DNA of 64,000 nt from a virus. How positions within the stretch are numbered: the stretch's first letter is position 1; each line of letters opens with the position of its first letter. Where the stretch lies: the IMG/VR virus record IMGVR_UViG_3300018411_000639, positions 1 to 64,000 of that record. One strand, 5' to 3'. The notes below the pieces were generated by a model. It was given only the letters and a program-made list of their open reading frames with translations. It searched no databases and was not told the origin of the DNA. Positions 148 to 57,712 of the stretch are shown here, piece by piece. A program made the translations under genes and the position numbers.

Positions 148-606
148 ATGCCAGGAGTGAAGCAGTACTTACAACATATGCCATCTGGTCAACTAGCTTC
201 AATGGTTTTCAAGAGTGAGTCAAGCGAAGAGAATGAGTTGATCCTGCTCCTCAAGGAAGACAACTGTATCATCAAAGAACTTAGCTCCGTTGGACTGGTC
301 TGCGTCTGGGTCACGATCCAAGAAGTAGTCGGGGTTGCCGGACTCGTAGTTGAGTTGGTTGCAACAGGTCATCACTACGAACTATGGATCGACTACAAGA
401 CGGCATACGGAAAGAAAGCCGTAGACTGTCTATGCACGCAGTCATCTGTTCGTGTGGACTTTGTCGGCACTGATGGAGAAATTCTTGGCCAAATCGTAAC
501 CAGCAACACACTAAAAGATACAGCCATCGAGTACAGAGAAGTCGCAGAGGGTTGCGACGAATGGTTGCCGGCTCAATTCCGACAACTGAAACGATCAGCG
601 AATTAG
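148..606 (+). CDS. Hypothetical protein (start probably ATG 148 rather than TTG 52)
   Basis: ORF with a purine-rich RBS before ATG 148; no recognisable motif. Confidence 0.65.
   Translation: MPGVKQYLQHMPSGQLASMVFKSESSEENELILLLKEDNCIIKELSSVGLVCVWVTIQEVVGVAGLVVELVATGHHYELWIDYKTAYGKKAVDCLCTQSSVRVDFVGTDGEILGQIVTSNTLKDTAIEYREVAEGCDEWLPAQFRQLKRSAN
570..585 (-). repeat. Dispersed 16-bp motif copy in reverse orientation (core TCAATTCCGACA exact), inside a plus-strand gene
   Basis: GGCTCAATTCCGACAA versus reverse-complement consensus GTGTCAATTCCGACAC; 12-bp core identical. Confidence 0.65.
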
Positions 607-758
607 GGGAACGATACATTCGCTTGGACTGCTTGTTGGCGTCCCCATAGGCTTTGTGCATTTCTGTCAAAGCTTGTTACGAAATAACGCATTTTGAGGC
701 GATTTCAGATTGTTTCTGTGGATGATTGGTCGTTCGTTGTCTTAAAATCCACGGCTAC

Positions 759-788
759 AAATAGAAGCTCCCGCTCGGTTACGGGAGC
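759..788 (-). terminator. GC-rich hairpin followed by TTCTATTT on the minus strand; possible intrinsic terminator
   Basis: GCTCCCG-CTCGGTTA-CGGGAGC perfect 7-bp stem at 767..788, flanked by AAATAGAA. Confidence 0.45.
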
Positions 789-930
789 CCCGTTAGACCG
801 CATTACATAAGAATTTAAAGCATCAACTCTACGCACGAAGAGGGCCACCCCTGAACAGATTGGCCTGGGCGGTGGGAGGAGGAGGCCGGGAGGACTTCTT
901 TGATGTGCACAATAGTTCGGCAAATTTAAC

Positions 931-958
931 ATTGCACATAATTCCTATTTCGTGCCAT
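931..958. other. Candidate dif-like recombination site (11-6-11)
   Basis: ATTGCACATAA-TTCCTA-TTTCGTGCCAT; arms are an 8/11 inverted repeat and the left arm resembles the XerC arm of E. coli dif (GGTGCGCATAA); 1.6 kb from an Xer-type gene. Confidence 0.35.
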
Positions 959-992
959 GTTTGAACAAAAACGAAGAGAGAGGGGTTTCTTT

Positions 993-1505: not shown

Positions 1506-1508
1506 AAC

Positions 1509-1538
1509 AAAAAAGAGCGCAGAAGCGCTCTTTCTTTT
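1509..1538. terminator. Bidirectional intrinsic terminator
   Basis: AAAGAGCGC-AGAA-GCGCTCTTT with flanking A and T tracts, between convergent genes. Confidence 0.8.
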
Positions 1539-2283: not shown

Positions 2284-2449
2284 ACTCTTTACCTACCCGC
2301 TGTCCTTGCTCAGGACTTGTATTGTTTGGGACAGGACACAACATTTCGCTAGTAAGCTTTCATCACATGCGGTCAAGTTTTGATCCCGTGAATTACAATT
2401 ATATAGATTTTTGTAACAGAATACAATTCAAAACTGATGAGATGAGAGT

Positions 2450-2475: not shown

Positions 2476-2546
2476 AATAGCACTCATGGGCTTGCTTTGC
2501 AAAATACGACAAGAAGCTATAAGCGCGACTGAAAGGATGCGATATA

Positions 2547-3578
2547 TTGACTAGATCAGAGAGAAATAATGCACTACCGCAGAGAGCAAAAGAGTTTGTT
2601 GCTTACCTGCCCGCGATGAAAGGATTGTCCCTGAATACCGTGGAATCGTACAGCAATGACTTGATTCTCTTGCTCCGTTTCCTGAAGCAAGAGAAAGGAC
2701 TGGTTCCGGAAGGGACGGTCTTCGAGGAGATCGACATTACCGACATCGGGGATGCATTCCTTAGGGAGATAACCGAGAACGACTTGATTCTCTTCGTGCA
2801 TTGGTCAAAGATAGATAGAGGCAACGCAGAGCGTACCCGTGCCCGTAAGATAGCTAGTCTGCGTGCGTTCTTCCGCTACCTGCACAAGAGAGCTCGCGTC
2901 ATCGACGAAGACCCAGCTGCCGACCTAGAATCCCCTAAAGTCGGGAAGAGGAAGCCTGTCTATCTTTCTTACGATGAAAGCTTGGCTTTGCTCCGATCGG
3001 TAGTGGGCAACGGACGAAACGAGAAGCGGGACTTCTGTATCCTCACCCTCTTCCTTAATTCCGGGATGCGCTTATCGGAGCTGTGTGCCGTAGACCTTGC
3101 GAGTATACGGGGAGATAGCCTGCTACTGCTAGGGAAAGGCAACAAAGAAAGACGGGTACCGCTGAACGCTTCTTGTCTGCGTGCGATTGATGCGTACCTT
3201 CCGGAGAGACAGGCTTTGGTGAAAGGCAACGAGTCCACGATGACAGCTGATACGAAGCGCGCTCTCTTCCTGAGCGAAAGACGTAAACGGATCAGCCGAC
3301 GAACCGTGCAGGACTTAGTTGACAAGTACCTGGTTGCAGCAGGCTTGTCCGGAAGAAAGTACACCACCCACAAACTGCGCCACACGGCAGCTTCATTGAT
3401 GTACCAGAATGGCGCAGACATTGTCAGCCTGCAACAACTGCTTGGCCACGACAATATTTCAACGACGCAGATTTATGTGCATATCGAAGACGACCAGATC
3501 CGCCGCGCAGTCAACCTGAATCCTCTAGACGAGGAACTCGATGACATTGTCGACCCTCCTGAGTATCATGATGAATAG
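2547..3578 (+). CDS. XerC/XerD-type tyrosine recombinase
   Basis: Full catalytic set: SGMRLSEL (R), GKGNKER (K), HKLRH, LLGH, TQIY; N-terminal core-binding domain (LSLNTVESY...RARKIASLRAFFRYL). Confidence 0.93.
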   Translation: MTRSERNNALPQRAKEFVAYLPAMKGLSLNTVESYSNDLILLLRFLKQEKGLVPEGTVFEEIDITDIGDAFLREITENDLILFVHWSKIDRGNAERTRARKIASLRAFFRYLHKRARVIDEDPAADLESPKVGKRKPVYLSYDESLALLRSVVGNGRNEKRDFCILTLFLNSGMRLSELCAVDLASIRGDSLLLLGKGNKERRVPLNASCLRAIDAYLPERQALVKGNESTMTADTKRALFLSERRKRISRRTVQDLVDKYLVAAGLSGRKYTTHKLRHTAASLMYQNGADIVSLQQLLGHDNISTTQIYVHIEDDQIRRAVNLNPLDEELDDIVDPPEYHDE

Positions 3579-3621: not shown

Positions 3622-3628
3622 GTGTTCA

Positions 3629-4618
3629 TCATTTAATGGTGCGATGCTCTTTCTCTCCAAGGAAAGCCATGATCGCCCACCCTGTTCTTTCCATTGCAGG
3701 AGTCGCCTCTGATGTGGCGTTACTCCACCCATCCGTCATGGTGACGACGATGTAGTCTTTTCCGTTGTACGAGATGATTCCTGCATCATGGGAAACGTCG
3801 TCAAGGATGCCTGTCTTGTGGGCAAACGTAACCTCTTCAGTTAGACCTTGATTCAGGGCGTAGATTAGTTGTTGTTTGGCCAGAAGATCCAAGAAGTAGT
3901 CTGTGCTGTTCGCAGACAAGAGATGACGGCCATGCAACCGGTTTAGTAGCTTTGAAACATCCTGTGCGGTCGTTTGGAGCGTCCCTGTGACCGCCACACC
4001 GTTTTCGTTAAGGTAGGTGTTGAAGGTAGTGGCTTTGTATCCTTGCGTGAAGATAAAGTCTTCTATCCGATCCCATCCGAGGAATGAGGCCAACGATACA
4101 GCTGCTTCATTGCTTGAAACGGTAATGGCCGCATTCAACAGAGAGTCCACGGTGTAGCCGTCTATTACTGTGTCCAGTGTTATGTACCCTTGATCCACTT
4201 TAGAGAGGACTGCATACGCCACGAACAGCTTGTAAAGACTTGCACTGGTATAAACCTTCTCTTCGTTGAAAGTGACCACCTCGCCGGTCTCCTTGTCCAT
4301 GAAGATGAAGCTGTATTGTCCGGGATAGTCCTTTCCAATCATCGTCGTATTGTGGGCAAGGATAGCGCCTGCGTCCGAGATAACGTGAGCTCGGTAAGGA
4401 GTCAGACCGTCTGGAGAGATGACTTCCTTAGCCGAGGCATCCTCTGCGGGTTGAGCAACAGGAGCGCTCTCCTGAACCGCCGAAACAACAGGTTCCGCTT
4501 GGGTGATCATGTTCTGCTTTGGCTCTGAAACAAACAGGGCTACAACGGCATAGGTTAATACAATCGGTGCAAGGAAGGCTAGAACTACGGCCCTCTTGTT
4601 CTTTAATTTTCTGTTCAT
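3629..4618 (-). CDS. Membrane-anchored serine hydrolase of the class A beta-lactamase/low-MW PBP fold (start probably ATG 4618)
   Basis: SxxK (SLYK), SxN (SSN) and KTG (HKTG) motifs; basic then hydrophobic N-terminal anchor; RBS AGGAGG before 4618. Confidence 0.85.
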   Translation of the reverse strand: MNRKLKNKRAVVLAFLAPIVLTYAVVALFVSEPKQNMITQAEPVVSAVQESAPVAQPAEDASAKEVISPDGLTPYRAHVISDAGAILAHNTTMIGKDYPGQYSFIFMDKETGEVVTFNEEKVYTSASLYKLFVAYAVLSKVDQGYITLDTVIDGYTVDSLLNAAITVSSNEAAVSLASFLGWDRIEDFIFTQGYKATTFNTYLNENGVAVTGTLQTTAQDVSKLLNRLHGRHLLSANSTDYFLDLLAKQQLIYALNQGLTEEVTFAHKTGILDDVSHDAGIISYNGKDYIVVTMTDGWSNATSEATPAMERTGWAIMAFLGEKEHRTIK

Positions 4619-4646: not shown

Positions 4647-5504
4647 TTACTGGTATCTAGTGTCGGAATTGACACCTCTAAGTTTCTTGATTGCGTTTTG
4701 TTTCTTTCGGTTGATGGTTGCACGACAGACACCATAGATTTCAGCGATCTGCGTGTCCGTCTTCTTCTCCGAGTAGGATAATAGCATGAGTCTGCGTTCG
4801 AATGGAGTCAGCACTTGGAATATAGCCCCACAAGTGATGCCGTTGATCCAGTTGACGTTCAGTATGGATGCGTCGTAAAGAGAAGAGATGTTTTCCTTGA
4901 TGGCAATACTGGAAGCATCAAGGGCTTGCTGATGCACAACCAAGTCTTCCGTCTTCGTGAACTGTCTACTGGATTCTTCATCTTCCAGTTCCCAATCATC
5001 TAAGTCTTCGTTATTGAAGCGAGAAGCGGGATCGTTCAGGTAAGGCGTAAGCGCTCGGAACGCTTCGTAGTGGAAGCATTTGTCCACGTAGTTGTGGAAG
5101 CTAGGACGCTCAAGGTCTCTGTAGCGCAGAGCCATAGACAAGAGCGCGCAGATCAGTTCGTTGCGTAGTTCGTCTTGCGGACATCGGGAGAAGGTCAGCT
5201 GGAGAAGACTGACCGTACTGTAGATGGAGTCACGGACGGTCAACTTGAATTTGTATTGATTGACGTGACTCTTTGCGCCTTTACCATTCATGAAGAGCGA
5301 GATAAAACGACGTAAGCCGGTATCGTCGATCTGAAAGATGCCAGCGCTCAACAGGTTCACGTATCGCCACAAGAACTTGTCGAATGATTGGATGATGACC
5401 TCAGCTGCATCTTGACTGCCTCCTTGATAATCCAAGACAGCCTGATGAAGTTGTTGGTAATCCGCCATAGAGAAAGGTTGTGTGTTTTCATTTTCTATTG
5501 TCAT
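4647..5504 (-). CDS. Phage sigma-70 family sigma factor
   Basis: C-terminal region-4 HTH (LTPFERRLM..SY..KTDTQIAEIYGVCRATINRKKQNAIKKLR) and region-2-like N-terminal part. Confidence 0.8.
   Translation of the reverse strand: MTIENENTQPFSMADYQQLHQAVLDYQGGSQDAAEVIIQSFDKFLWRYVNLLSAGIFQIDDTGLRRFISLFMNGKGAKSHVNQYKFKLTVRDSIYSTVSLLQLTFSRCPQDELRNELICALLSMALRYRDLERPSFHNYVDKCFHYEAFRALTPYLNDPASRFNNEDLDDWELEDEESSRQFTKTEDLVVHQQALDASSIAIKENISSLYDASILNVNWINGITCGAIFQVLTPFERRLMLLSYSEKKTDTQIAEIYGVCRATINRKKQNAIKKLRGVNSDTRYQ
4660..4675 (+). repeat. Dispersed 16-bp motif GTGTCGGAATTGACAC (exact), at the 3' end of the sigma gene
   Basis: Read directly from the sequence. Confidence 0.9.
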
Positions 5505-6061: not shown

Positions 6062-6249
6062 GCTTGGCCTCCCCTTAATTTCTTATCACCCTCTTGTCCC
6101 GAATCTTGGACAAGCGTAAAGGTTGGTTCTGTGTCGGAATTGACATGCCCATCCTTAATGGCCTGAGCGACTGACTCGTTGTATACAAGTGTACGTCCCT
6201 GGTCGTCAATTACGATTGCTTTTCCGCCGTTCATGTTCATTTCTAGCAT
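6058..6249 (-). CDS. Small hypothetical protein, 63 aa
   Basis: GGAGG RBS; 4-nt overlap with ruvC. Confidence 0.65.
   Translation of the reverse strand: MLEMNMNGGKAIVIDDQGRTLVYNESVAQAIKDGHVNSDTEPTFTLVQDSGQEGDKKLRGGQA
6131..6146 (+). repeat. Dispersed 16-bp motif copy GTGTCGGAATTGACAT
   Basis: 15/16 match. Confidence 0.9.
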
Positions 6250-10501: not shown

Positions 10502-11147
10502 CCCCTGATACCCGATTCTCGGTTACTTTCTTTTGGAATAGCTGAATCGCATCCGCGTAGTATTCTTTTACGTCAGATGGGACGCGCAGCTTGTTGTAAT
10601 TGTTGGTCATGATAATGTCGTTGGATATGTCAATCATGAAGAGGACGAGGTCTACTTCGAATTGATCCAACAGCCACTTGATAGCACCTTTCACACGGCC
10701 AAAGGTGACAGCTTCTTTGTGGCACAAGCCCTGCTTAGAGAGGAAGTAATTTGTCAGATCCTCAAGCGTGTAGCTTGCCCGCATCTCAAGGTAGTAGTCT
10801 TGGACGACGCGTTTGATCTCGCCCGTGTTGTAATCGAAATCCACCACAGGAGGCGGTGTCGTAACCCGCAACTCATTATGGTAGTAGAACTTCCCTGTCC
10901 TCAAAAGATTCGTTCTCTGAGGGCTTCGGCCACGGAAATGAGTGGGAAGGTCAAGACCCTTCTTGCCTTCTGTTGCTTTGTAGTGTCGGCGCAGCTCTGC
11001 ACCTAATTCTTCAGATGTCCAACCTCTGTCCAGTAGTTGCGCCAACTGTACAACGGTTGCGACCTTGAACTTCTGAGAGATGTCCTCGTTCTGATGGAAC
11101 ATCTTCAGGTAGCCATAGGTCAGGTCAAAAATAGAAACTTTTCTCAC
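10461..11147 (-). CDS. Hypothetical replication-module protein (start probably GTG 11147, overlapping the upstream stop)
   Basis: TAGTG stop/start overlap; directly upstream of the primase. Confidence 0.65.
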   Translation of the reverse strand: MRKVSIFDLTYGYLKMFHQNEDISQKFKVATVVQLAQLLDRGWTSEELGAELRRHYKATEGKKGLDLPTHFRGRSPQRTNLLRTGKFYYHNELRVTTPPPVVDFDYNTGEIKRVVQDYYLEMRASYTLEDLTNYFLSKQGLCHKEAVTFGRVKGAIKWLLDQFEVDLVLFMIDISNDIIMTNNYNKLRVPSDVKEYYADAIQLFQKKVTENRVSGGDQIVPRRRLLSH

Positions 11148-11809
11148 TAGAATAAGCTCTGGGCCATTCCATCTGCCCACTTGATGAACTCTTCCACGTT
11201 TTCCGGGTTCAGCTGACGCTTGCTGGTAATCTCCGGACGCCATAGAGAAAGATAGCGGACGAGTTGTTCGTCATTGACGATCTCAAAACGTTCCTTGAAT
11301 TTGTTCATAGCCTCGACTTTTTCTGGTGACCATCGCCCTGCTTGACTACGCGGTGTCTGTCCAGGTCCTTGTTGTTGCTGCTCTTGCGGTTGTCCTTGCG
11401 GAGCAGACATCCCGTTGTGGGCGGTCTGTTGTTTGTCGACTATATTAGTGTCGGAATTGACACGTTTTTGTTGGTCGACTGTCGCAGGTTGTCCTTTGGC
11501 ACGAGATAACGTCGAACAAGCGTTGTGTATGGCACGTTGCACCGTTTGGCGGATAACATCTTCAGCGAGAGGATTGCTTGTTGCTGCCGTTCCTGTTCGG
11601 ACAAAGCCCGGAAGATAAAGGATAACCGTTACATGGTAATTGATCCCATTCGTCGTGTAGCCTTCATTTTGGATTTCATAACTCCAGCTGATGCCCATAT
11701 CCCCCAAGAGTTGGACTACCTTGTCGGAGTTGACACGTACAAGGTAGTCTTGATATTTGGGTGACAAAGGCTCTAGGCCGAGGTAATGCGTGACCATTGC
11801 GTTGTTCAT
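11147..11809 (-). CDS. Possible single-strand annealing protein (Rad52/Sak-like architecture)
   Basis: N-terminal domain with WSYEI...VTVIL...RTGT, Q/P-rich linker and small helical C-terminal domain; first gene of the replication operon. Confidence 0.4.
   Translation of the reverse strand: MNNAMVTHYLGLEPLSPKYQDYLVRVNSDKVVQLLGDMGISWSYEIQNEGYTTNGINYHVTVILYLPGFVRTGTAATSNPLAEDVIRQTVQRAIHNACSTLSRAKGQPATVDQQKRVNSDTNIVDKQQTAHNGMSAPQGQPQEQQQQGPGQTPRSQAGRWSPEKVEAMNKFKERFEIVNDEQLVRYLSLWRPEITSKRQLNPENVEEFIKWADGMAQSLF
11448..11463 (+). repeat. Dispersed 16-bp motif (exact)
   Basis: GTGTCGGAATTGACAC. Confidence 0.9.
11721..11736 (+). repeat. Dispersed 16-bp motif variant TTGTCGGAGTTGACAC
   Basis: 14/16 match, clustered with two other copies. 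Confidence 0.7.
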
Positions 11810-11831: not shown

Positions 11832-11847
11832 GTGTCGGAATTGACAT
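11832..11847 (+). promoter_or_regulatory. Dispersed 16-bp motif in operator position, between the promoter and RBS of the replication operon
   Basis: GTGTCGGAATTGACAT in intergenic DNA about +10 to +25 from the predicted transcription start. Confidence 0.75.
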
Positions 11848-11863: not shown

Positions 11864-11892
11864 AGTATAGATTTTAATATACCGAAAGTCAA
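11864..11892 (-). promoter_or_regulatory. Sigma-A promoter of the replication operon, TTGACT-17bp-TATACT
   Basis: -35 at 11887..11892, -10 at 11864..11869, exact 17-bp spacer; GGAGG RBS at 11818..11822 and ATG at 11809. Confidence 0.8.
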
Positions 11893-11917
11893 CACAGATT
11901 TGTAACACTTCGATACA

Positions 11918-13177
11918 TTAAACTATGGTATACCCTACCTGAACCCTTGATACGTTTGGCGTTACCTCGGTTCCGTAGAGGTGGAATTTTACCAACATCC
12001 GCTTTCCGGTCAATGTAAACGGAACGGTCTCCGGTACCTTGTGCGGCATCTCGTCACTTCCATAATAGTAGTATTCGCATTGCACGCTTCGGTCGGATAA
12101 CTCGGATGGGTTGTTCAGTACGGCATCCGCTCCATGAACGATGATGCTCCCATTCTCTTCCGGAAACACGATGTCGGTTTGGAAGGTGCTGTACTCTTTG
12201 GCGTAGGTATTCTGAGAAACGCGCATCCCTTTAATACCCAGATGGAACTCCCTCTTCCCTGCTTCAGCGCTCAGGAAATGGCGTTGGCGCAGACGGATTC
12301 TCAACTGGTTGGCGTCGATCCCTCGGAAGCAAAGCTTCAGGTTAGCTGCATCCTTCATTACAGGACGCTCATAGGCCGTACCGTAGATGTCCGTGTATTC
12401 CTCAATCAGACTGGCTCTGTGATCCTCGAAGCCGGGAACAGATGTCCAAGCGCCCTCTTTCCGATACTCCACTGCCAGTACATCCACTGCATTGACGGGA
12501 TATGGATTCAAGGTAATCGTGTTGGTTTCCCTTGTTGTGATGATGTCCTCTGGTAGCCCGATAGTGAGGTCTACCGTTACTTCGTTCACTGTTTCGTCCG
12601 TCAGTACTCGTCTGGCCCAATAAGTGCCGGCGTCCCCGTTAAAGGCGTTGATAGGGTCGCTCTCTGTAATGGAGAGGACGCCTTGCCCAAGTATTGTCGC
12701 AGCAGGAGAGAGGGCTAAGCTCAAGCTAGGCGGAACGAATGTCGCCTGCAGTCCTTCGTCATAAAGGTTTACTTTGGATGAGATGCGACTTGGTTGCATC
12801 GTGACGGACATGCTTTCCAAGTCGATGAGCGCAGCGTGATCACTACCGTCAACGGTCATCTCGTTAGGATAACGGACAATCAGCTTGTGCGCTCCACTGT
12901 TTCCGGAGAGGTCTCGGTAACGTTGGCTCAGGGTGGCGATCTTCGCCTCCAGGTCGTTCACGCGGTACTGCAGGTAGGTGTTCTCTGCCCCTACGACAGA
13001 CCTCGTTTCGTCAATCGCCTTCTCCATCCGGTTCGCTTTGTTGAAAAGATCCAGAACATCCTGAAGGATTTCATTTTGCGACTGGTTCATCTGGGCGCTG
13101 TTCGTTCCTGTTCTGTAGCCTACTTGTGTACGTTGTGTCGCAGGAATGTTGGAGATGTTGATGCTTTCGGTATCCAT
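11918..13177 (-). CDS. Putative virion structural protein, 419 aa (coiled coil plus beta-rich domain)
   Basis: Last gene of the structural cluster; coiled-coil N-terminus and NAFNGD...W discoidin-like segment. Confidence 0.6.
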   Translation of the reverse strand: MDTESINISNIPATQRTQVGYRTGTNSAQMNQSQNEILQDVLDLFNKANRMEKAIDETRSVVGAENTYLQYRVNDLEAKIATLSQRYRDLSGNSGAHKLIVRYPNEMTVDGSDHAALIDLESMSVTMQPSRISSKVNLYDEGLQATFVPPSLSLALSPAATILGQGVLSITESDPINAFNGDAGTYWARRVLTDETVNEVTVDLTIGLPEDIITTRETNTITLNPYPVNAVDVLAVEYRKEGAWTSVPGFEDHRASLIEEYTDIYGTAYERPVMKDAANLKLCFRGIDANQLRIRLRQRHFLSAEAGKREFHLGIKGMRVSQNTYAKEYSTFQTDIVFPEENGSIIVHGADAVLNNPSELSDRSVQCEYYYYGSDEMPHKVPETVPFTLTGKRMLVKFHLYGTEVTPNVSRVQVGYTIV

Positions 13178-41601: not shown

Positions 41602-44600
41602 TTAAAACAAACCGGATAGCTTCTCTTGCAACCAGCTGTCGCTGACTTGAGAAGTGTCGTCTTGGGTATTCAGGTTCACGTTCAAGTTCGGGCCGTTGAC
41701 TTTCTCAACCGTTCGTTTGACGGCCGATAGAACAGCGGAACTGTCTTGGCTGCCTTTTGCTTTCACATGAAACTGAACGCCTTCGTTTCCGACATAAGCT
41801 TTTCTTTCTTTGGACGAAGGAGCGATGCGTGGCGAAACCGCAGGCTTCTGGTCAAACTGTCCGTTGGAGTCGGAGGACCCGCTTCCGTTCGGACGGTGAG
41901 AAGCCTTCAGAGCAGAAGGAGGAGCAGAGAACTGCATCCCTGCAAGCAGACTGGAAAGCCCTACGGCTACACCGACCCCAATCATCGTTTTCCCGAATTT
42001 ACCCATCGGCTTGCGGGCAATTTGTTCAACGGCATCCATCCCTGCACTGGCGACACTCTTTCTTTCTCCGGCACTTTGTCCTGTCTTGCGGATTGCGTCG
42101 TTGATGTCTGAGATACCACCCATGACTTCGTCCTCAAGGCCTCGGGTATTCTGTACGGTATGCCTGTCCATCGCTTGTCTTGCTTCCTCGATGGATGCGC
42201 CGTCCAGTGCTTCGAAGTAGTGGCCGATCTGTTCCGCAGTCTTTCGGGCTGCCTGTGTGTTTCTGGCACCAGAACTTCCTGCTTCGTAGATGCCACGCAA
42301 GTCATTCATGCTGACCTCGTTGATCTTGAGTCCTGCTTGATTGCCGAAAGCGATACGCGCCTCACCTAAGCCTTGGATATTCCGTTCGCTCAGGAAAGAT
42401 TGGATGATGTCGTTGCTGTTCCAATTAAGGTACTGCATCGCTTCGTCAGACTGACTGCTTGCCAAGGTGTCGAAGTCCTCGTCCAGTTGCTTCAGGATGC
42501 CTTGGTTTTGTGTAGAGGCTTGTCTCCAAGGGGTAAGCACGGTTTCTTCTTCCACCGCTTTACTTACGTTCTGATCGTTCAGGCGTTCTGCTGCGCTCTC
42601 GTCCAGGCCTCTCACCTGCTCGGCATAGCGAGTCGTTAACTGTTCGCTTACGTCATGAAGGTTGTAGAGTTGACCTCTCGCCCCTTCTGTCCGTTGGATG
42701 ATCTTCTGAATACCGACATCCCCGCTTGAAGGAGTTGGTATTGTGTCGGAATTGACACCTTTGACGGACGCAGCGTCTCTTGCCATCACGGAGTGACGGA
42801 CTTGTTCTCGTGATTCCGCACTGGCTCCTCGTTCACGGATCTGGTCATTGAACTGACGAATCAGCGAACCGGAGTCCTTGTGTCCCCTACTTCTTAACTC
42901 TCCGGCGAACTGGCTTGTGGCTTTACCTTCGTCCGTCCCGAAGAAACTTTCCTGTGCTCTTTTTGCGATTGCATGATCGTAGCCTTCGTGAGAGAGAATC
43001 GAGGATGCGACTGTTTCTCTTAGTCGATTGGCTCTCTTCCCTCTTTTCGTTACGGTAGACTCTAATACGTCTATTTTATCAGAAGGGGACTGTGATGACA
43101 ACGTCTTCGAGGCGACCAGTGCTTCGACCTGACGAAACTGAAAAGTATCGGCATCCGTCATCGCTTCATCGACAAACTGCTGAGCCCCTTTCGTTATGAT
43201 CTCTTCACGGAAGGCAGGTACATCGCTCCTTGTTCCGATACGGAAACTCTCTTGGATCTTCTGACCAAGGACTTCCATGTCAGCCCCATAGACACGCTGT
43301 TGCTTCTTCGTCTTCGTCTCCTGAAGGACAACGAATGGCTGACGGGAGCGCTCCCCTTGGCCGTAAGATTTCACTTGGTAGATACCCGGATCGTAAACAC
43401 CCTCATTTGGCATCAAGTAATTACTCTTGTCCAAGGCTACTCCGTCGATTCGGATAGCGGAGGGTTGTTTTGCTCTCCGGATGGCTTCCTGTTTTGCTCG
43501 GATAACCTCACTGCTTCCTTCTGCTGTTTCGTTCACAACAGACTTCAGGCGATCCATCAGACCTCTGGGGTTCGGTTGACTTCGGATAAGCGGAGAGTTC
43601 CAGATTTGGGTTGCACGAGGATCTTGGAACATCTTGCTCAAGGATAACAGGGATTGATTCATCGGGATATTCATATCGACTGATCCGTTCAGAATGTCAG
43701 CTGCCACAGGAGCCGTTCCTTTCGGGAAGATCGGACCTTCCATAGCGTCGATTACGTTCTGAAGACCCATCTCATGTTCTCCGTTGGCGAGTTGCGTCAG
43801 ACCTAAGCGGTACTTCGGAACCTTGGTAAGCTCTTCCCCACCATCCTTGATATGTTTAACGTCGATCGGCTTTTGTTCGGATTCATCTGTCATCTTCAAG
43901 AGATTATCTAGGTGGACTTGATCCTCTTTGCTGTCCTTAAACACTTCCTCACCGATTTCACGCAAGACATAGTTTGGTGTGGAGATGTAACCGATAGCCC
44001 CTTTGTTGTGCTTGTTCTTGATGGCGGTTGTAACGACAGCTTCGTTGTGCAGATAATTGTCTTTCAGTTTCCCTGTCGCCGTGTCCGTAGGGAGATTCTG
44101 CTCTCCCTGGATGTATGCAGCATGACGAAGGATAGCATCCCCGGCCTCATCTTCTGGATTGGAAGATCCAAACTTGATGGAGTCACCCACGTACTCGTCG
44201 ATTGCAGCAGCCATGTGGCCGTCTTTCCCTGCATTGGTAAAAGATTGCGCCTCGTAGAGTTTACGTGTCGCTAACTCAGCGGGGTCTTGTTCGTTCAACA
44301 GGCGAACGACATTGCGACCTTTCTCTTTATCGTAGCTGGATTCTAGGTTGAGGATCATGGCCTCCATATCTCCATCGACGTCGGCGTTCCAACTATTCGC
44401 TGTGTACCCTTGAAACATGAGGGTGCGACCCTTTAGTTTGTCGTTCAAGCGGACACTGACAGCTAAGTCGGAACTGGTCTTAAATACCGGGTCACGTTTA
44501 CCTGTCCCGAAAATACCGCGCTCCCTGACGTATTCCAAGCCCGCTTTCTCGAAAGCCTCGTCTGTCGCAGCAACGTAGGCGGGGGAGTTCTTCCAGTCAC

Positions 44601-47600
44601 GGGTTGCTTTCTTCAACTCTTTCTTTGTGGCGCCGGCAATCCCTTCCCGGGAAGGGTCTCCCGCTAAGACAAGCGACCCTTGCCCATCAAGAATACCCTT
44701 TCGGATCAACTGCTCTCGGAAGGCGTTGTCGTTTGCTAATCTTTCGTTTACGACTTGATCGCCGATGTCGCGGAAGTTTACACCCATCTCTTCCAGTTGC
44801 TCACGAGAGGTCTCAAGAACATCTCCGTACCCGATGCGACCATCTGCACCTCTCAGAGTCAGGCCCTTCGTGCTCTCTTTATTGGCGAAAGACAACTCAA
44901 TGCCGTTTTCGAGATCCGCTTTCGCTTTCTCTGCGGCTACAGCCAGTGACTCTCCTTTCATCATCTCTTCTGTTACAGGTGAAGTGATGACGGTACCGTG
45001 AGCGTACCCAGAGAACGGCATACGTCCAGATAGCATGAAGCGATTCATGATGCCGTCCTTATGATTCAGTTCATTCTCAAAGGAACCCATCATATCCTTG
45101 TAGGCATCGTCCATCCGCGACTGCATCTGTTTGATGCTTTCTCCGCTTCTAACTGATTGCCCATCCTCAAGGGCTTTTGCCGAGTTAAGCAGTGAGGCGA
45201 TTTTCTTCTGAGAGTCAGAGAAGAAGACCTGTCCATCTACGGCGTGCGTGCGAACCAATGGAATAACCACATCACCGACTCGTTCCCCTGTTTCCGGGTT
45301 CTTGATGGTTATGCCGCCCAAGTTGACTCGGAACGCATCCACGCCCTCGAAGCTTCCATCGTTCTCGTTGGCTACAGAGAACAGCGTCTGCATCATTTCC
45401 TCAACACTGGCTCCACTCTTAGGGATAAGCAAGTCCTCTAGGTTTACGTCCTGAACCCCTCCGGGACTCTTCTCCCCCATTACGTGAGTAAGGGATGCCA
45501 TGATTCCTCGTAAGGACTTGGCTCCCTCTGCATATTCCGGGGACCGCTGAATAATCCGCATTCTCCGGTCAAGGATCGGCTGTGCAACTTTTTCAAACCG
45601 CTCTCCGGTGAATATACGGAACTCTGCATCGCCCACATTGGAACCCAACATCTGATTGGATTTCGGTGTGACGCTGACCCCTTTTCCTGTATCGCCTTCT
45701 GCTCCTTTTGCCGAGTGCATCTCGGACATAATCATGCGACGAACAGGTACGCGGTAGGAGTTGGCTTGTTCCATCTGGCGCATTTCGGCAGCGACTTGTC
45801 TGACCTTTTCGTCGGGACTGTCTTGGATGGCTCGCACCATATCCCTGACACCTTCTAAGTGACCGGCATCAGAGGAAGGATTTCCCTCGATAAGGAGCGT
45901 CTTCTTCCCTGCCTCATCGAGCAGGAAGTCTCCCGTCTCGCTTCGGCTGTAACGTGCGTTCCAACTTGGCAGATGTTCGTCAGCAAGGCGTTCGAACTCG
46001 CCCTCTACACCTAGTTCGTCAAAGCGTTCCGCCATGTAGTTCACGGAGCTACCTGCGACCACGGAGCCGGATAAATGCTTCCCTAGTTCGAACTTACCGA
46101 CCAAGGCTGCGTCTCCGTAAGATTCTTTCCAGACGGCCTGAACGAGGTCATCGTATTCATCGCCCAAGTCGACGGTGGATGCGACAGTCTTCTCTACGCC
46201 ACTGATGCCGAGTTTGAGCTCTCTCAGCTGACCTTCGGCAACAAACCGCGCTTCGTCACCTTCTCCGACCATCTTGCCGGGGTTCACGTACATGGCGTCG
46301 TCTGCGATTTCTCCGACCTGACCACTTGCCTTGTTGTACACGATGTCGATGGTGCTTCCGTCCAACTCACGCGTACCGATGACATCACCCGTCTTCACGA
46401 AGTCACCCGGCGAAATGGTCATTTTTGCCGTTTCAAGGTCTTTGATCTTGAAGGTGTTCAATTCGTTCTTGTTCCACAAATCCTTGCGGAGAATCGGATT
46501 GACGAGCGAATGCTGCAGGTTCGTATCCGAGTAAAGACGGAACTCTTGCATGACGGCATCGAAGTCTTCGGAAGTATACTTGCCACCAAGTCCGGCCAGA
46601 ACATCTTCCTTGCGGGATTCCGTTGCGTCCAGAGCCTGCAGCATTTCATGGGTGTGCATCTGACGCACGTTCGCCATGACCGTTCCTTCGTAACTCCCCA
46701 TACCGGCGGCTTCCATCTTTCCGTAGTAGTTCTCTGCGGCTTCTCTCGTCACGACACTTTCACCGACACGGATATTCAAGGAGTCCAGTTTGGCTTCCTT
46801 GCCGACAAGATCGTCTTTGTCAAAAGATTGGAAAGACTGGAACTGCATCTGCACCGGACGAGTGAACCCGGTCATAAAGCCATACGAGTTCATGGCGACA
46901 CGATCCAACGTGGAAACAAATCCATCCGCAACTTTGTCTTCCCTCAGGATTTGATGCGCGCCTGTGTCCAGTAGGTTTTTGAACTCTGACACGGTCTGTG
47001 CGTCCGTGATTTCTTCGCCGTAATCCACTACCTTTTGGATAAGACCTTCTCCGTAAACAAGGTTCTTGACGTACCATTCCTGAACGGCGATATCCATATC
47101 CTTCATTTTCTTCAGACTGTTGTGCCCACCGTCGGTAAGTTGCTGACTCCAATTAGCCATGTAACTTGCTACCTTTTCATCGGTTCCCCCTACGACAGGG
47201 CTGAATACTTCGTTCAGCGTTTTTCTTACGCCTTCGTCCCGTTGATAGATCGCAGGCAAGAAGTTGATGGCAGAACTCATATCGACTAGATGGTTGGATG
47301 CAACGTCCGACATGTTCGGAATGACTTTCTTCAAGGCTTGCCCACCTTCTACAACGGTCTGCACCCCACTTAATCCGGGAGCAGCTAGTATCGGCTTGCT
47401 GAAGGCGCGGTTCACGGTCGCATTGACTGCTTGGAAATCACCACGGGAAACCATATCGGCGATCCGCTTGTTCTCGTAGATGTACTGCGTCAAGGATTCA
47501 TTCAACGTATCCTGATAATGTGTCACGAGCTTACCTGTATCCTTGTCCGTGTAGGCGTTCAGGCTGCCAATGATGGACTTCTCTATCCGACCTTTCGACA

Positions 47601-50600
47601 CGGATGCAACCGGGCCATCCATATTGATCTTGCTCATAGGGACGACTCCGGCAAACTCACGAATCTCATCCATTCCTTTTTCATCTGTGAGAGCTTCCAG
47701 TAATCGGTGAGAGTGTTTCTGATCTGTAAAGGCGAGCATCAAGTTATCGTCCGGCCCGTTGAATAGCTGTACGGCGTAATCGTGCGCCCCGACCATCCCC
47801 ATCTTCTTGTTGAAGAAAAGGCTCTCGACTTGCTTCAGGTGATGATCGTCGTAGTTCAGCTCTGCACGCAGTTGTTCTGCCACAGGCGCGAATCCTTTTT
47901 CGGACACCCCAATCGAAACCAGAGGGCGCGTACTGTTGATTGCTTGCTCTACGGTCTTCTGGATGTCATCCGGTGTATTGCCGATCGACGCATGGAACTC
48001 ATCCAGACTATTGCCCTTGTGTTTGAAACCGGATGTATCGAACTCGAGCATCGGTTGCGTTTCTGAATTAATGTAACCCCATAGCTTGCGGTCTTCATCG
48101 CTCAACGTTCCTTCGACGCTTTGTTCGTAAAGGGTGTCGGACGTTACGTCACCGAAATCGAAATCACGCATCTGCTCCGCACTAAAACGGGACTTCACGC
48201 TATCGACGGCTTGGAATAACTCTCCTCCGATTGCTTGTGCGATGTGGTAAGGATCGGTAGCGTCACCGATGACACTGTGCTTGAAGCCTGCAGGCAACAG
48301 CTGACGACCGACAAGATCATCGGCGATAGACTTCAAGGCTTCTACTTGCAGGAACTTTTTACGAGAAGGGAGTTTTTCATGTTTCCCAACCCCTCTTACG
48401 GCATTCAGGATGCCGGCCCCCGCCGAATTGTTCGAGGATGCATTGATCCGTGTATACCCGTTTCCGCCCACAACGTCCGCTACCTCGATGGAGTGAATGT
48501 CCGCAAAGGTCCGGTCGGCAATCCGTTTGTTTCCAGCGATAGAGTTTCCTGTTTCAGGGTCTTTCGTAAGCAAGCCCCAAGCTTTCCGTAGAGCCAATGT
48601 CTTCTGTGTTTCCATGTAGTTGCCTGCAATCTTCGGTGTCAGGTTGCTTGGCACTTGTGTCAGGGCTGCGTTCGTGCCGATGGTATTGATAGCTGTCTCC
48701 ATAGTGATATTGGTGTCTTTCAGGACATTGTAGAGTTCCTTGAATGTCGTCTTCTGTTGCGGAGATTTCAGTCTGCCTAGCACTTGATCCGCATTCAAGG
48801 TCTTGTCCAATTCACTGACAGAGCCGTTCTTCACAAGGAACGCGATATCTTCCATTCGGGCCGGTCTGCCGAAGGTTTCTCTGAAGGCGATGTTTACGTC
48901 CGAGTAAGTGCCGTACATCGTTTCAGCGTAACTGAATCCTCGCCCGTTCCCTAGTTGAAACATTCCCTCAAAGTTCCGTCGCGCGCTATCGGAAATCGTG
49001 CGGCCTACTTGTTGGTCCACCATGGCAGAAGTCACCTCTCCGGGGTTCAACGGAATGCGGTTCACAGCTTGATTGGACTCCAAAGCGCTTCGCAGTTCCG
49101 CTTTCCGTCGGTACTTGCTTCGACCCTGCAAACCAACTTGAGTGGCGTAAGAGCGCAAGCCTTTGAGTGGCATCTGGCTGAAGTCTGTCAGTTCCTCGGC
49201 TTCAACGACTGTATGGATGGAGAGGTCATTCTGGAACAAGGCTTGAATGTCGTCCGGGTTCGATCTGAAAATCGTACCTGTCACATTCTGATTTCCTTCG
49301 CCTGCTCCTCGGAACCGAAGAGCGAACAACCCTTCTGCTCCCGGTTGGTTCTTCGCGACTCGACTTGCGATGCTCCCGTCAAGTTCTGCTGTTGGGATGA
49401 ATTTCATCTCATCCACCTGATAGAACTGATTGCGGTTCAATGCGTAATCAAGGTGCGGCTGAATCTCTCCGTCAATCGCCATGAAGTCGTATCCGTCTTT
49501 GTCGATCTTAACCGCTTTGTTGGCGAACACCACGCTCTCGCCCGCATTGTCTGGTGTGACGGTTCGGTTGTTTGGGTTGGAGCGAATAGCTTCCACACCT
49601 TCGAGGACGTCTTGGTAACTTTTCTGAGCAAGAGTCATGGTCGCTTTCGTATCGGATTCCGCAAGATGGGCGTCAATGTCGATACCGAAGGCCGAAGCCC
49701 ACGAACCCAGACTACCCGGACTGCTTCCTGCACTAAAGCTTTCGATGCCTTGGTTGCTGGCGATACCGCTTAACGAAGACAACATTCTTCCTTGATTGGT
49801 TGCGCTCAGACCGGTTCTGGCATCATAGTGGTTCAGCGCCTTGACGGCAGGGATGCCTTGCTCCTGCAGCACGGCGTTCAGGAAAGGAATGTCATAGTTT
49901 GTGCCATTGTAGCTGAGAAGGGCTTTCCCCGGATTGTTGGTTTCGGTGATGGCGTTCCGTAAGGAAATAAGTTGCTGTCTTCCGACGTCTGTCTGGAGTC
50001 CTTGCTTGCGGCCTACTTTAGCAAGATTGGACAAACCTGACCTTGCCCGACGAAGATCCGTTGGGTCAGGGTCGAGCAGTTTGCCCAGAGCGAAACGTTT
50101 GGAACGAGGATTCATCACAAAGGCGTTGGGGTCAGAATAGACTGTCAGCCGTTTAATGGTGGACTGCTCAGCTGCACTCAACGTATCCCACCCATCTCCC
50201 TCTGCGCGGGCTATCAACTCTAGGAAGCCTCTTCGTTGCCGTTCTTCTACACCAAAGGTAAGGACTTCGCTGATTGGCTTATTTGCCTGAATCATACCCG
50301 AAGCATTCTTCGTTACCTGTTGCCGCACAAGAGCGACTTCCGTCATGGCCAGCAATCCTTTTTCGGACTCCGTTGCGTTTGGTCCGAAGTTCCCAAGGGT
50401 TTCCAAGTCGAAACCTGTAACGTCGCCTCCGTCCACCTCGAAGATGTTGCGGATGTTCTCTGCCTGCTTCTGGATTTCATTGAGGTCAAAACCTTTTGCT
50501 GCTTCAGGGTAAGTGGTGAACGCAAACGGCACACGGGATTGTCTGGCGAGAAGTTGGTTCAGCGTATCTCTTTGTTTCTGGTAAAGCTCCTGTGCGTCGG

Positions 50601-50676
50601 GATTATCCCACATTGTCCCAAGGTTGCTGTTGAAACTGCTTCTTGTTGTGTCTCGGTTGATGTCAGCTAAATACAT
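41602..50676 (-). CDS. Giant 3024-aa single-chain two-barrel DNA-dependent RNA polymerase-like protein with an N-terminal DEDDh exonuclease (probable virion/injected protein)
   Basis: Exonuclease motifs FDLET, YNGTNYDIPFL and HLAESD; beta-like PGDFVKTGDVIG and KLGISGVEK; beta'-like HKDGIMNRFMLSGRMPFSG, KRDP and NADVDGD; located in the tail operon. Confidence 0.8.
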   Translation of the reverse strand: MYLADINRDTTRSSFNSNLGTMWDNPDAQELYQKQRDTLNQLLARQSRVPFAFTTYPEAAKGFDLNEIQKQAENIRNIFEVDGGDVTGFDLETLGNFGPNATESEKGLLAMTEVALVRQQVTKNASGMIQANKPISEVLTFGVEERQRRGFLELIARAEGDGWDTLSAAEQSTIKRLTVYSDPNAFVMNPRSKRFALGKLLDPDPTDLRRARSGLSNLAKVGRKQGLQTDVGRQQLISLRNAITETNNPGKALLSYNGTNYDIPFLNAVLQEQGIPAVKALNHYDARTGLSATNQGRMLSSLSGIASNQGIESFSAGSSPGSLGSWASAFGIDIDAHLAESDTKATMTLAQKSYQDVLEGVEAIRSNPNNRTVTPDNAGESVVFANKAVKIDKDGYDFMAIDGEIQPHLDYALNRNQFYQVDEMKFIPTAELDGSIASRVAKNQPGAEGLFALRFRGAGEGNQNVTGTIFRSNPDDIQALFQNDLSIHTVVEAEELTDFSQMPLKGLRSYATQVGLQGRSKYRRKAELRSALESNQAVNRIPLNPGEVTSAMVDQQVGRTISDSARRNFEGMFQLGNGRGFSYAETMYGTYSDVNIAFRETFGRPARMEDIAFLVKNGSVSELDKTLNADQVLGRLKSPQQKTTFKELYNVLKDTNITMETAINTIGTNAALTQVPSNLTPKIAGNYMETQKTLALRKAWGLLTKDPETGNSIAGNKRIADRTFADIHSIEVADVVGGNGYTRINASSNNSAGAGILNAVRGVGKHEKLPSRKKFLQVEALKSIADDLVGRQLLPAGFKHSVIGDATDPYHIAQAIGGELFQAVDSVKSRFSAEQMRDFDFGDVTSDTLYEQSVEGTLSDEDRKLWGYINSETQPMLEFDTSGFKHKGNSLDEFHASIGNTPDDIQKTVEQAINSTRPLVSIGVSEKGFAPVAEQLRAELNYDDHHLKQVESLFFNKKMGMVGAHDYAVQLFNGPDDNLMLAFTDQKHSHRLLEALTDEKGMDEIREFAGVVPMSKINMDGPVASVSKGRIEKSIIGSLNAYTDKDTGKLVTHYQDTLNESLTQYIYENKRIADMVSRGDFQAVNATVNRAFSKPILAAPGLSGVQTVVEGGQALKKVIPNMSDVASNHLVDMSSAINFLPAIYQRDEGVRKTLNEVFSPVVGGTDEKVASYMANWSQQLTDGGHNSLKKMKDMDIAVQEWYVKNLVYGEGLIQKVVDYGEEITDAQTVSEFKNLLDTGAHQILREDKVADGFVSTLDRVAMNSYGFMTGFTRPVQMQFQSFQSFDKDDLVGKEAKLDSLNIRVGESVVTREAAENYYGKMEAAGMGSYEGTVMANVRQMHTHEMLQALDATESRKEDVLAGLGGKYTSEDFDAVMQEFRLYSDTNLQHSLVNPILRKDLWNKNELNTFKIKDLETAKMTISPGDFVKTGDVIGTRELDGSTIDIVYNKASGQVGEIADDAMYVNPGKMVGEGDEARFVAEGQLRELKLGISGVEKTVASTVDLGDEYDDLVQAVWKESYGDAALVGKFELGKHLSGSVVAGSSVNYMAERFDELGVEGEFERLADEHLPSWNARYSRSETGDFLLDEAGKKTLLIEGNPSSDAGHLEGVRDMVRAIQDSPDEKVRQVAAEMRQMEQANSYRVPVRRMIMSEMHSAKGAEGDTGKGVSVTPKSNQMLGSNVGDAEFRIFTGERFEKVAQPILDRRMRIIQRSPEYAEGAKSLRGIMASLTHVMGEKSPGGVQDVNLEDLLIPKSGASVEEMMQTLFSVANENDGSFEGVDAFRVNLGGITIKNPETGERVGDVVIPLVRTHAVDGQVFFSDSQKKIASLLNSAKALEDGQSVRSGESIKQMQSRMDDAYKDMMGSFENELNHKDGIMNRFMLSGRMPFSGYAHGTVITSPVTEEMMKGESLAVAAEKAKADLENGIELSFANKESTKGLTLRGADGRIGYGDVLETSREQLEEMGVNFRDIGDQVVNERLANDNAFREQLIRKGILDGQGSLVLAGDPSREGIAGATKKELKKATRDWKNSPAYVAATDEAFEKAGLEYVRERGIFGTGKRDPVFKTSSDLAVSVRLNDKLKGRTLMFQGYTANSWNADVDGDMEAMILNLESSYDKEKGRNVVRLLNEQDPAELATRKLYEAQSFTNAGKDGHMAAAIDEYVGDSIKFGSSNPEDEAGDAILRHAAYIQGEQNLPTDTATGKLKDNYLHNEAVVTTAIKNKHNKGAIGYISTPNYVLREIGEEVFKDSKEDQVHLDNLLKMTDESEQKPIDVKHIKDGGEELTKVPKYRLGLTQLANGEHEMGLQNVIDAMEGPIFPKGTAPVAADILNGSVDMNIPMNQSLLSLSKMFQDPRATQIWNSPLIRSQPNPRGLMDRLKSVVNETAEGSSEVIRAKQEAIRRAKQPSAIRIDGVALDKSNYLMPNEGVYDPGIYQVKSYGQGERSRQPFVVLQETKTKKQQRVYGADMEVLGQKIQESFRIGTRSDVPAFREEIITKGAQQFVDEAMTDADTFQFRQVEALVASKTLSSQSPSDKIDVLESTVTKRGKRANRLRETVASSILSHEGYDHAIAKRAQESFFGTDEGKATSQFAGELRSRGHKDSGSLIRQFNDQIRERGASAESREQVRHSVMARDAASVKGVNSDTIPTPSSGDVGIQKIIQRTEGARGQLYNLHDVSEQLTTRYAEQVRGLDESAAERLNDQNVSKAVEEETVLTPWRQASTQNQGILKQLDEDFDTLASSQSDEAMQYLNWNSNDIIQSFLSERNIQGLGEARIAFGNQAGLKINEVSMNDLRGIYEAGSSGARNTQAARKTAEQIGHYFEALDGASIEEARQAMDRHTVQNTRGLEDEVMGGISDINDAIRKTGQSAGERKSVASAGMDAVEQIARKPMGKFGKTMIGVGVAVGLSSLLAGMQFSAPPSALKASHRPNGSGSSDSNGQFDQKPAVSPRIAPSSKERKAYVGNEGVQFHVKAKGSQDSSAVLSAVKRTVEKVNGPNLNVNLNTQDDTSQVSDSWLQEKLSGLF
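42743..42758 (+). repeat. Dispersed 16-bp motif (exact), inside the RNAP-like gene
   Basis: GTGTCGGAATTGACAC. Confidence 0.9.
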
Positions 50677-56428: not shown

Positions 56429-57095
56429 TCATCACACCCTCATTCTGCCAATGGACGCCTCCGATGAGAGGGAAGTCCATGAAGTCTTTCTTCTGGTTAA
56501 ATTCGTCTTTGAAGTATATCATCGGATCCATTCCGTTAGCCCTCAGTTCATCCACAAACGCTTTGTTGTCAGAACCCGAGTTCTCGGCGTACTCCTCTAC
56601 TTCTTGTTGGTTGGTGGTGAGTTGGATGTTATGACCTTTCAGGTTCAGGATTCTCTCTGCCCTTGCTACCGCCAGCATCAAGCGATCCCATGTCCAGTCT
56701 TCCATCTGCTCGTAGGAGTATTCCGGCATAGCCGCCTTGACGACAGCCATACACTCCTGGTCGAATTGCTTGGTCTTTCTCTTCCCTTTCTCGTAGGCAT
56801 CCAGAACGGAACCCAAACTGGTGAAGTTTGAAGCCTCGACGATCATCGGGCACGCATACGCCGACACCCCCGCAAGAGGGTAGTTCTCGAAGTCAATGTC
56901 TGCGGGCTCAAGGATGGCCGCTTGGCAGATGGCATCTTCCATGTCGTGGTCATCCTGCGTCAAGTTGGTGATGTCCCGATACTCTTTTCGCGTCAGGGTC
57001 CGAAAGACGAATTCTTTATTCTGAAAAAGGACATAAATCACTTTATGTCCTTCATGTGCTTCTTTGTGGTAAAACAAATCATAGATGGAGATCAT
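56370..57095 (-). CDS. Tail assembly chaperone-like protein 2
   Basis: FVFRTLTRKEY motif shared with the upstream paralogue; between the tube genes and the tape-measure-like gene. Confidence 0.6.
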   Translation of the reverse strand: MISIYDLFYHKEAHEGHKVIYVLFQNKEFVFRTLTRKEYRDITNLTQDDHDMEDAICQAAILEPADIDFENYPLAGVSAYACPMIVEASNFTSLGSVLDAYEKGKRKTKQFDQECMAVVKAAMPEYSYEQMEDWTWDRLMLAVARAERILNLKGHNIQLTTNQQEVEEYAENSGSDNKAFVDELRANGMDPMIYFKDEFNQKKDFMDFPLIGGVHWQNEGVMNAIRTQMGKAKNTESQIER

Positions 57096-57106
57096 TGCAT
57101 TGCCCC

Positions 57107-57712
57107 CTATAATATCTGGATGGAGTAGTCTTTTGTGAATCCGCTATTCTCCATGACGATCTGTGCATAGGTTGACGGGATGCCCGCTTTTCCGATAGCC
57201 ATCTTACGGAAGTCGTACTTGCTTGGCCAAAGCGTACAGGTCTCACAAATGATTTCTTCTCTCTGCAGAGGGTCAAGGTTTGGGATAGCTGCGAGCTGTT
57301 TGTACTCGAAGCGGTTCAGAGTGCGGAAGACGAAGTACTGTCCCATGATTTCGATAGCCATAAGGTTGTAGTCTTCCCATTGGCGCTTCCACGTTTCGAC
57401 TTGTGTGATGGTAGGTCCACCCACAAAGAGGGGTTCGTCATAAGCGTAGAGTTCAGGGTTGTCGCCGAGTTCTCCTTCTTCCGGCTCGCTTCTCAGCGTA
57501 GGTAGGTCTTCCCACTCTTCCGGTTCGTTCTGCAGATGAACACTTTCCTCGGTTTCTTCGCTTGTGTCGGAATTGACACCTTCAACTACTTCATTGTCAT
57601 CTCGGAACGATGCGTACAGGTCTTCGTTTGCTGCAGGTTCCTCACTGATTTGCTTGGATAGTTTTTCTTTGGCTTGCTTTGCTAATTGATCTAGGTTTCC
57701 TCCGCTGAACAT
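57107..57712 (-). CDS. Tail assembly chaperone-like protein 1
   Basis: Acidic N-terminus, then QVETWK...FVFRTLNRFEY...AGIP...I...SGF. Confidence 0.65.
   Translation of the reverse strand: MFSGGNLDQLAKQAKEKLSKQISEEPAANEDLYASFRDDNEVVEGVNSDTSEETEESVHLQNEPEEWEDLPTLRSEPEEGELGDNPELYAYDEPLFVGGPTITQVETWKRQWEDYNLMAIEIMGQYFVFRTLNRFEYKQLAAIPNLDPLQREEIICETCTLWPSKYDFRKMAIGKAGIPSTYAQIVMENSGFTKDYSIQIL
57564..57579 (+). repeat. Dispersed 16-bp motif (exact)
   Basis: GTGTCGGAATTGACAC. Confidence 0.9.

Follow-up and report, generated by a model that had tools for sequence, protein, structure and literature searches.

To our knowledge, genome-wide regulator sites with a bias in orientation are well documented only in the Cluster A mycobacteriophages, and versions confined to promoters are known from P1 and SPbeta. 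In P1, a prophage of about 90 kb, the C1 protein recognises operators that are asymmetric, about 17 bp long and scattered over many promoters. The Cluster A operators and stoperators, which are served by gp71 in L5 and by the repressor of TipsytheTRex, are both oriented and dispersed (PMC9283540). SPBRE is a 15-bp element at about ten promoters of the 134-kb Bacillus prophage SPbeta, where it is bound by the master repressor MrpR (PMC10516654). The 16-bp word described here is repeated throughout a freshwater phage genome, the IMG/VR record IMGVR_UViG_3300018411_000639, which is a contig of 112,616 bp with a guanine plus cytosine (GC) content of 49.6%; its first 64 kb constitute the window, that is, the stretch of 64,000 nucleotides from which the analysis started. 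The word is read as a set of double-stranded operator and roadblock sites for one sequence-specific protein, resembling the stoperators of L5, with a probability of roughly one in two.

On the sense strand the word is GTGTCAATTCCGACAC, and 20 copies are distributed over the whole contig. The window has 13 matches with at most three mismatches when 0.71 are expected, and none of 100 shuffled sequences reached 13. The initial annotation had placed the word at 12 positions and its 12-bp core, TGTCGGAATTGA, as an exact match in nine; a motif search with the same limit of three mismatches found the word at all 12, and the nine exact cores were recovered. The match at 53730 is without the invariant core and probably arose by chance. 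There are four copies in the window without mismatches (4660, 11448, 42743 and 57564), four with one mismatch (6131, 11832, 22621 and 31933) and four with two or three (11721, 38013, 32129 and, on the minus strand, 570). Seven plus-strand copies lie beyond the window (64834, 67907, 85075, 85951, 102046, 102642 and 108749) together with an exact reversed copy on the minus strand (109054). Relaxing single core positions adds just two or three weak candidates (32371, 71216 and 48135), so the copies form a discrete family that is clear of the background. The information is limited to the 16 positions of the word, with random flanks that show no conservation. The site is quasi-palindromic (5-6-5) and asymmetric, its two halves being unequal; TGTCGGA is found in all 20 copies of this genome and an embedded TTGACA in 17 of them. 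The repetition is real and far beyond chance.

The copies are associated with promoter-like sites, defined as coding-strand matches in at least 10 of 12 positions to TTGACA-N16-18-TATAAT, of which the genome has 12. Five of these 12 best sites touch a copy, which either lies over the -35 or starts 9-16 nucleotides (nt) past the -10:

-10 ending at 67894: TTGTCA-N17-TATAAT; the -35 is the left arm of the word itself
-10 ending at 11864: TTGACT-N17-TATACT; the word starts 16 nt past the -10
-10 ending at 85981: TTTACC-N16-TATAAT; the word starts 14 nt past the -10
-10 ending at 102667: TTTGCA-N18-TATAAT; the word starts 9 nt past the -10
-10 ending at 109084: TTGACA-N18-TATAAT, 12/12; the word starts 14 nt past the -10

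A promoter-like site is found within 40 nt of 4 of 18 copies, compared with 0.6% of random positions (p about 4e-6), and within 350 nt upstream of 8 of 18, compared with 3.3% (p about 5e-8). The promoter-like sites at 11986, 32456 and 43073 have copies 140-315 nt downstream. Several transcription units share a layout in which the promoters at 11986 and 11864 are followed by copies 11832, 11721 and 11448, the promoter at 32456 by 32371, 32129 and 31933, the promoter at 109084 by 109054 and 108749, and the promoter at 102667 by 102642 and 102046. A promoter with two or three copies is the layout expected of a putative operator with back-up roadblocks. The copies and promoter-like sites of the window, with their surrounding open reading frames (ORFs), are as follows:

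570-585, minus strand: copy with exact 12-bp core and degenerate arms, 21 nt ahead of the stop codon of the plus-strand gene 148-606 and co-oriented with it
4660-4675, plus strand: exact copy within the final codons of the sigma-like gene 4647-5504 (minus strand); the beta-lactamase-family gene 3629-4618 begins about 40 nt further downstream
6131-6146, plus strand: copy with one mismatch within an ORF of 63 amino acids (aa); a RuvC-like gene starts about 70 nt downstream
11448-11463, plus strand: exact copy in the 220-aa ORF 11147-11809, third of three below the promoters at 11864-12013
11721-11736, plus strand: copy with two mismatches, 73 nt into ORF 11147-11809
11832-11847, plus strand: intergenic copy with one mismatch, starting 16 nt past a promoter-like -10 and ending 22 nt before the ATG at 11809
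11864-11892, minus strand: promoter-like site of sigma-A type, 10/12, intergenic, with the sequence given above
11986-12013, minus strand: second promoter-like site, TTGACC-N16-TAAAAT, 10/12, 139 nt upstream of copy 11832
22621-22636, plus strand: copy with one mismatch, 247 nt into ORF 21402-22883
31933-31948, plus strand: copy with one mismatch, 265 nt into a 1729-aa ORF
32129-32144, plus strand: copy with three mismatches, none of them in the core, 69 nt into the 1729-aa ORF
32371-32386, plus strand: weak candidate copy, GGACATTTCCGACAAG on the sense strand, downstream of the promoter at 32456 and ahead of the start codon at 32213
32456-32485, minus strand: promoter-like site, TTGACA-N18-TAAAAT, 11/12, upstream of the 1729-aa gene and its three copies
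38013-38028, plus strand: copy with two mismatches, deep within a 1756-aa ORF with lysin domains
42743-42758, plus strand: exact copy in the 3024-aa ORF, 315 nt below the promoter-like site at 43073
43073-43101, minus strand: promoter-like site, TTGTCA-N17-TAAAAT, 10/12, intragenic
57564-57579, plus strand: exact copy, 133 nt into ORF 57107-57712

The early promoter at 109084, a perfect consensus, is predicted to drive the genes with which the long minus-strand array opens. Its copy at 109054 matches the 16-mer perfectly and sits at about +8, with an orientation opposite to that of the other copies, and no plus-strand promoter-like site was seen upstream of it. An operator in DNA that blocks initiation can act in either orientation. 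A reversed exact copy at the strongest promoter is thus explained by a DNA operator and not by a signal in the sense-strand RNA or in the transcription bubble.

Apart from copy 109054, all copies (19 of 20) share the orientation of the local gene, and copy 570 is reversed along with its plus-strand gene. A simple caller based on ORFs and ribosome-binding sites (RBS) placed nearly all genes between 3.6 and 109 kb on the minus strand. The description of the word as transcription-oriented therefore holds as a genome-wide count, but with about 95% of the genes on one strand it can only weakly be told apart from strand-specific. That the word lies mostly inside coding sequence was confirmed with our own ORF calls, with 11 of 12 copies in the window and 15 of 20 in the genome overlapping ORFs; this placement is qualified by copies 570 and 4660, which are in the last seven codons, and by 108749, which overlaps a stop codon. 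The copies also cluster at gene starts: of the 18 in the minus-strand array, 13 fall between -90 and +280 nt relative to a start codon, compared with 24% of random positions (p = 2.6e-5), in a range that was picked after the data were seen. The three reading frames reported earlier were also found, with VNSDT at 10 sites, (V)S(I/T)PT at four and QFRQ at 570. Because the word is read in several frames within unrelated proteins, selection acts on the nucleic acid, as had been proposed.

Three relatives have the word. G004, an IMG/VR fragment, was the only relative in a 14-mer scan of viral contigs that otherwise gave mostly single chance matches, and G005 and G006 were found by portal searches. 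Their portal proteins are 64%, 76% and 62% identical to that of this phage, respectively, and their DNA is about 67% identical where it can be aligned. They carry four, three and six copies, whose orientation relative to the genes is always the same, and the 11 distinct copies with at most two mismatches in the relatives' loci are all co-oriented with their genes. Two positions of the word are common to this phage and its relatives, both in the endolysin gene. In the 5' leader the word follows an (extended) -10 by 9, 13 and 45 nt in the three genomes, and in the Pro/Thr-rich linker the word is kept while the surrounding peptide differs; flanks, linker peptide and promoter spacing all differ at these shared positions. 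A site common to G004 and G005 is missing from the orthologous codons here despite a similar peptide, so sites are gained and lost by near-synonymous change. The relatives have a GC content of 37-38%, and across this 12-point gap both gene order and word are kept; such a gap within the subclade would imply a marked shift in composition or host.

Outside the subclade of G004-G006 the word was not found in 1.58 Mb of related loci, and about 1.4 Mb from relatives further removed gave no copy either; four portals that are 58-69% identical, on contigs of 76-150 kb (P0010, P0011, P0014 and P0070), lie outside this comparison. G007 and G008 (portal 53% identical) have no dispersed word of any kind. 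The more distant G009 (portal 38%; loci L191-L196) has about 20 copies of a different palindrome, TGTAACGCGTTACA, many of them 0-6 nt past -10-like hexamers, for example at L193:13115, L193:15766, L194:11254 and L195:11999, which suggests an analogous promoter-linked system with another specificity. No new close relative with a long contig was found among the metagenome contigs scanned, and GenBank phages gave no near match, only distant 0305phi8-36-like ones.

The two arms of the word differ in conservation when the 33 sites from four genomes are compared. The half TCCGACA is invariant in 31 sites and its GACA arm in all 33, so that every arm change is on the other arm, and none of the 33 sites has a compensated change of the inner pair. 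The inner pair is broken in six sites, one of which, G004:6433, is conserved in position; the outer pair forms in no more than 18 of the sites and is broken in 15. Such uncompensated decay of one arm favours recognition as double-stranded DNA, in which a strong half-site is joined to a weak one, over a hairpin in RNA or single-stranded DNA.

In the reading favoured here, copies that cover the -35 of sigma-A-type promoters, or lie roughly between +3 and +25, would be operators that stop the host RNA polymerase (RNAP) from initiating or from clearing the promoter. The other co-oriented copies, which lie inside long genes or no more than a few hundred bases into transcription units, would be back-up roadblocks to elongation. 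One protein, probably phage-encoded, could in this way silence a nearly one-directional genome of 105 kb or switch it off in time. We infer all three of protein binding, a repressive effect and an importance of orientation for function. Of the five options in the initial annotation, the first, an L5-type operator or stoperator, fits best in view of the association with promoters, the operator-like spacing, the lineage-specific conservation and the decay of one arm.

Several points weigh against this reading. The promoters were identified as consensus matches only, and no binding protein was found, the only clear helix-turn-helix (HTH) proteins being poor candidates. No CI/Xre-like or gp71-like repressor was detected with Pfam or PHROGs among about 59 ORFs, with about 40 ORFs unscanned and the contig possibly incomplete. 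A strong strand bias usually marks a signal at the RNA level or one coupled to transcription, and ordinary operators need no orientation. Copy 570 alone separates gene-oriented from strand-specific. The range used for the gene-start count was, as stated, picked after the data were seen. In addition, G006 has no copy at its early promoter.

An element at the RNA level is an unlikely alternative. The transcribed word, GUGUCAAUUCCGACAC, either as a hairpin or single-stranded, would be bound by a phage protein and would serve in antitermination (nut/boxB-like), processing, stability or translation. The sense strand holds 19 of the 20 copies, many are 22-57 nt before start codons or at predicted transcript 5' ends, and the RNA can fold into a 5-bp stem with a 6-nt loop, at best with -5.0 kcal/mol. 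However, the arms change without compensation and the broken site G004:6433 is nevertheless conserved in position, copies at +60 to +270 are too distant from the RBS for translational control, and the reversed exact copy at the early promoter would give a different loop with no plus-strand promoter to transcribe it. The RNA hairpin proposed initially is weakened by the lack of compensation, by the six sites with a broken inner pair and by the reversed copy. The orientation, the placement in leaders and early in transcription units, and the 105-kb one-directional array also suit an ops-like signal, read from the non-template strand in the bubble, that loads a processivity or antitermination factor along long operons. 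This is very unlikely, since 16 nt exceed the exposed bubble, the inverted-repeat arms and the reversed copy at the main promoter are unexplained, and no NusG/RfaH-like ORF is present among the ORFs scanned.

Signals for a phage-encoded polymerase, whether promoters, pause sites or terminators, would have a T7-like layout and would be recognised by the giant RNAP-like protein of 3024 aa. As with T7-type RNAP promoters, a contiguous word of high information recurs along the genome in a single orientation, with about 17-20 copies; in six cases the copy ends 22-57 nt ahead of a start codon and an RBS lies in between, and the giant ORF (41602-50676, minus strand) has NADVDGD at residues 2097-2103, which resembles the beta-prime metal-binding motif. 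Unlike T7 promoters, many copies are just inside the 5' ends of ORFs and just past host-type -10 boxes. At least seven are 60-270 nt inside the 5' ends of long ORFs, where initiation would give headless transcripts, and the fixed place past host-type -10 boxes is left unexplained. Moreover, the giant protein has homologues over its full length in G007 and G008 (26% identity, 3,245 positions aligned), yet these relatives have no dispersed word, and the RNAP nature of the protein is itself putative. A phage-RNAP signal, another of the initial options, is for these reasons disfavoured and quite unlikely. A conserved host protein could also bind the word, such as Spo0A, or region 4 of sigma-A through the embedded TTGACA. 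In B. subtilis and phi29 the 0A box of Spo0A is the heptamer TGTCGAA, usually in tandem, and Spo0A represses from sites past promoters in phi29 and at abrB. The invariant TGTCGGA differs from this box by one mismatch, the post-promoter sites of the word recall such repression, and the word is common to phages of 50% and 37-38% GC whose hosts are probably different. Against this, every copy has a G at box position 6, where the 0A consensus differs, the two half-boxes abut in an inverted instead of a tandem arrangement, near-identity over 16 bp is unusual for a site of a host regulon and no -10 follows TTGACA. Among 185,579 species genomes, no relative in prophage form came up; overall, a host factor is improbable. 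It is likewise doubtful, at low odds, that the word is the promoter, pause or stop code of a virion-associated single-chain RNAP-like giant protein, or an independently evolved orientation-dependent control of elongation with a binder of new fold.

Some simpler roles were rejected. The word is not a sigma-type promoter, as neither side has a conserved -10, whatever the spacing, and it is not an intrinsic terminator, as no T-run follows the copies. Antisense promoters from the embedded TTGACA were rejected because a -10-like hexamer is present at only 2 of 20 copies; antisense promoter-like matches (10/12) are found at 11730-11757 and 22630-22659 on the plus strand. Chi-like, pac or nick sites would leave the link to promoters unexplained, and neither the parS-like nor the Chi-like option raised initially fits an asymmetric, oriented and promoter-linked 16-mer.

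The operator and roadblock reading can be compared with the described systems. As in L5, one asymmetric site is present in at least 20 copies over the whole genome (PMC9283540). Further similarities are that a subset is at promoters (here five copies, at promoters recognised as consensus matches), that the site sequence is lineage-specific and that orientation tracks transcription, although here this is confounded by about 95% of genes on one strand and one reversed copy is at a promoter. Unlike the 13-mer of L5, the site is a 16-bp 5-6-5 quasi-palindrome, and 15 of 20 copies overlap ORFs whereas the L5 sites are in short intergenic gaps. The phage is also unrelated to L5, with no gp71-like protein among the ORFs scanned. 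SPbeta is similar in that one short element is repeated at promoters of a large phage genome. However, SPBRE sites are intergenic promoter sites without reported roadblock copies, and MrpR has a catalytically dead recombinase fold, whereas the sole recombinase-like ORF here keeps all catalytic residues. The operators of C1 in P1 are similar in being asymmetric and dispersed over a large prophage, but they are known at promoters only, and no C1 homologue was seen here. In contrast to parS/ParB the site is asymmetric and oriented. Because site architecture and coding placement differ and no homologous repressor was found among the ORFs scanned, the word system is not a member of the L5, P1 or SPbeta families.

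The phage is tailed and distantly related to Bacillus phage 0305phi8-36 (27% identity in one virion protein), and its RBS and lysins are of Gram-positive type. The public sequencing runs that contain it are freshwater and wastewater metagenomes. Genes were identified for a portal, a holin, an endolysin with amidase, LysM and SH3 parts, a helicase, a primase, RuvC, a PD-(D/E)XK nuclease, a sigma-like protein, an HExxH protease and giant proteins of 1361 to 3024 aa. The following gene bears on lifestyle:

2547-3578, plus strand: XerD-like tyrosine recombinase with R, K, H-x-x-R, H and Y all aligned and present

Its presence suggests a temperate or plasmid-prophage lifestyle. Adjoining it and directly downstream of copy 4660 is a gene of the beta-lactamase / D-Ala-D-Ala carboxypeptidase family (3629-4618, minus strand; Beta-lactamase2, E = 4.7e-39).

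Neither of the two clear HTH candidates for the binder follows the distribution of the word. The 86-aa protein of the early operon with HTH and zinc ribbon, which has a faint match to a ParB PHROG (E = 0.009; no other ParB match was obtained), was rejected because it is conserved with up to 60% identity in relatives without the word, and the sigma-like protein because it is conserved (36%) in G007 and G008, which also lack it. The first early gene (89 aa) has only a helical hairpin in its Atlas model, a 248-aa ORF adjoining the recombinase gave weak GNAT leads, and two divergent ORFs of 321 and 123 aa look membrane-associated. The remaining ORFs of the divergent block had no informative family or Atlas match, and no genes outside the core are common specifically to G006 and this phage.

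Other elements of the genome were observed as well. A match to the Pistol self-cleaving ribozyme (L126:7689-7759, plus strand; genome 111689-111759) scores 72.1 bits against a gathering threshold of 34.5 (E = 2.5e-12) and sits just past the HExxH protease gene. Upstream of the consensus early promoter, a purine-rich gap of about 500 bp (L126:5100-5600, minus strand) has two copies of (A)GGGGTGGGGC, which are conserved in G006 (L181:14450-15000); the gap has no Rfam match, and the copies may mark an attachment region, an origin or a non-coding RNA. A further repeat, TTCAACTACTT, occurs in five copies within about 130 bp (L125:10939-11066, genome 94939-95066) near the start of ORF 94885-95334.

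The same layout as in the Cluster A mycobacteriophages is thus seen in an unrelated, uncultured lineage, where it is mostly in coding sequence and has been kept over a 12-point shift in GC. This points to the guarding of many sites by a single protein as a strategy that recurs in the control of large phage genomes read in one direction. The word provides a 16-bp bait for the regulator and a map of probable transcription units without a cultured host, and it would be a portable operator and roadblock part if the function is confirmed. Should the code of a giant RNAP or a new control of elongation prove true instead, the word would be the first cis-element for these uncultured freshwater phages.

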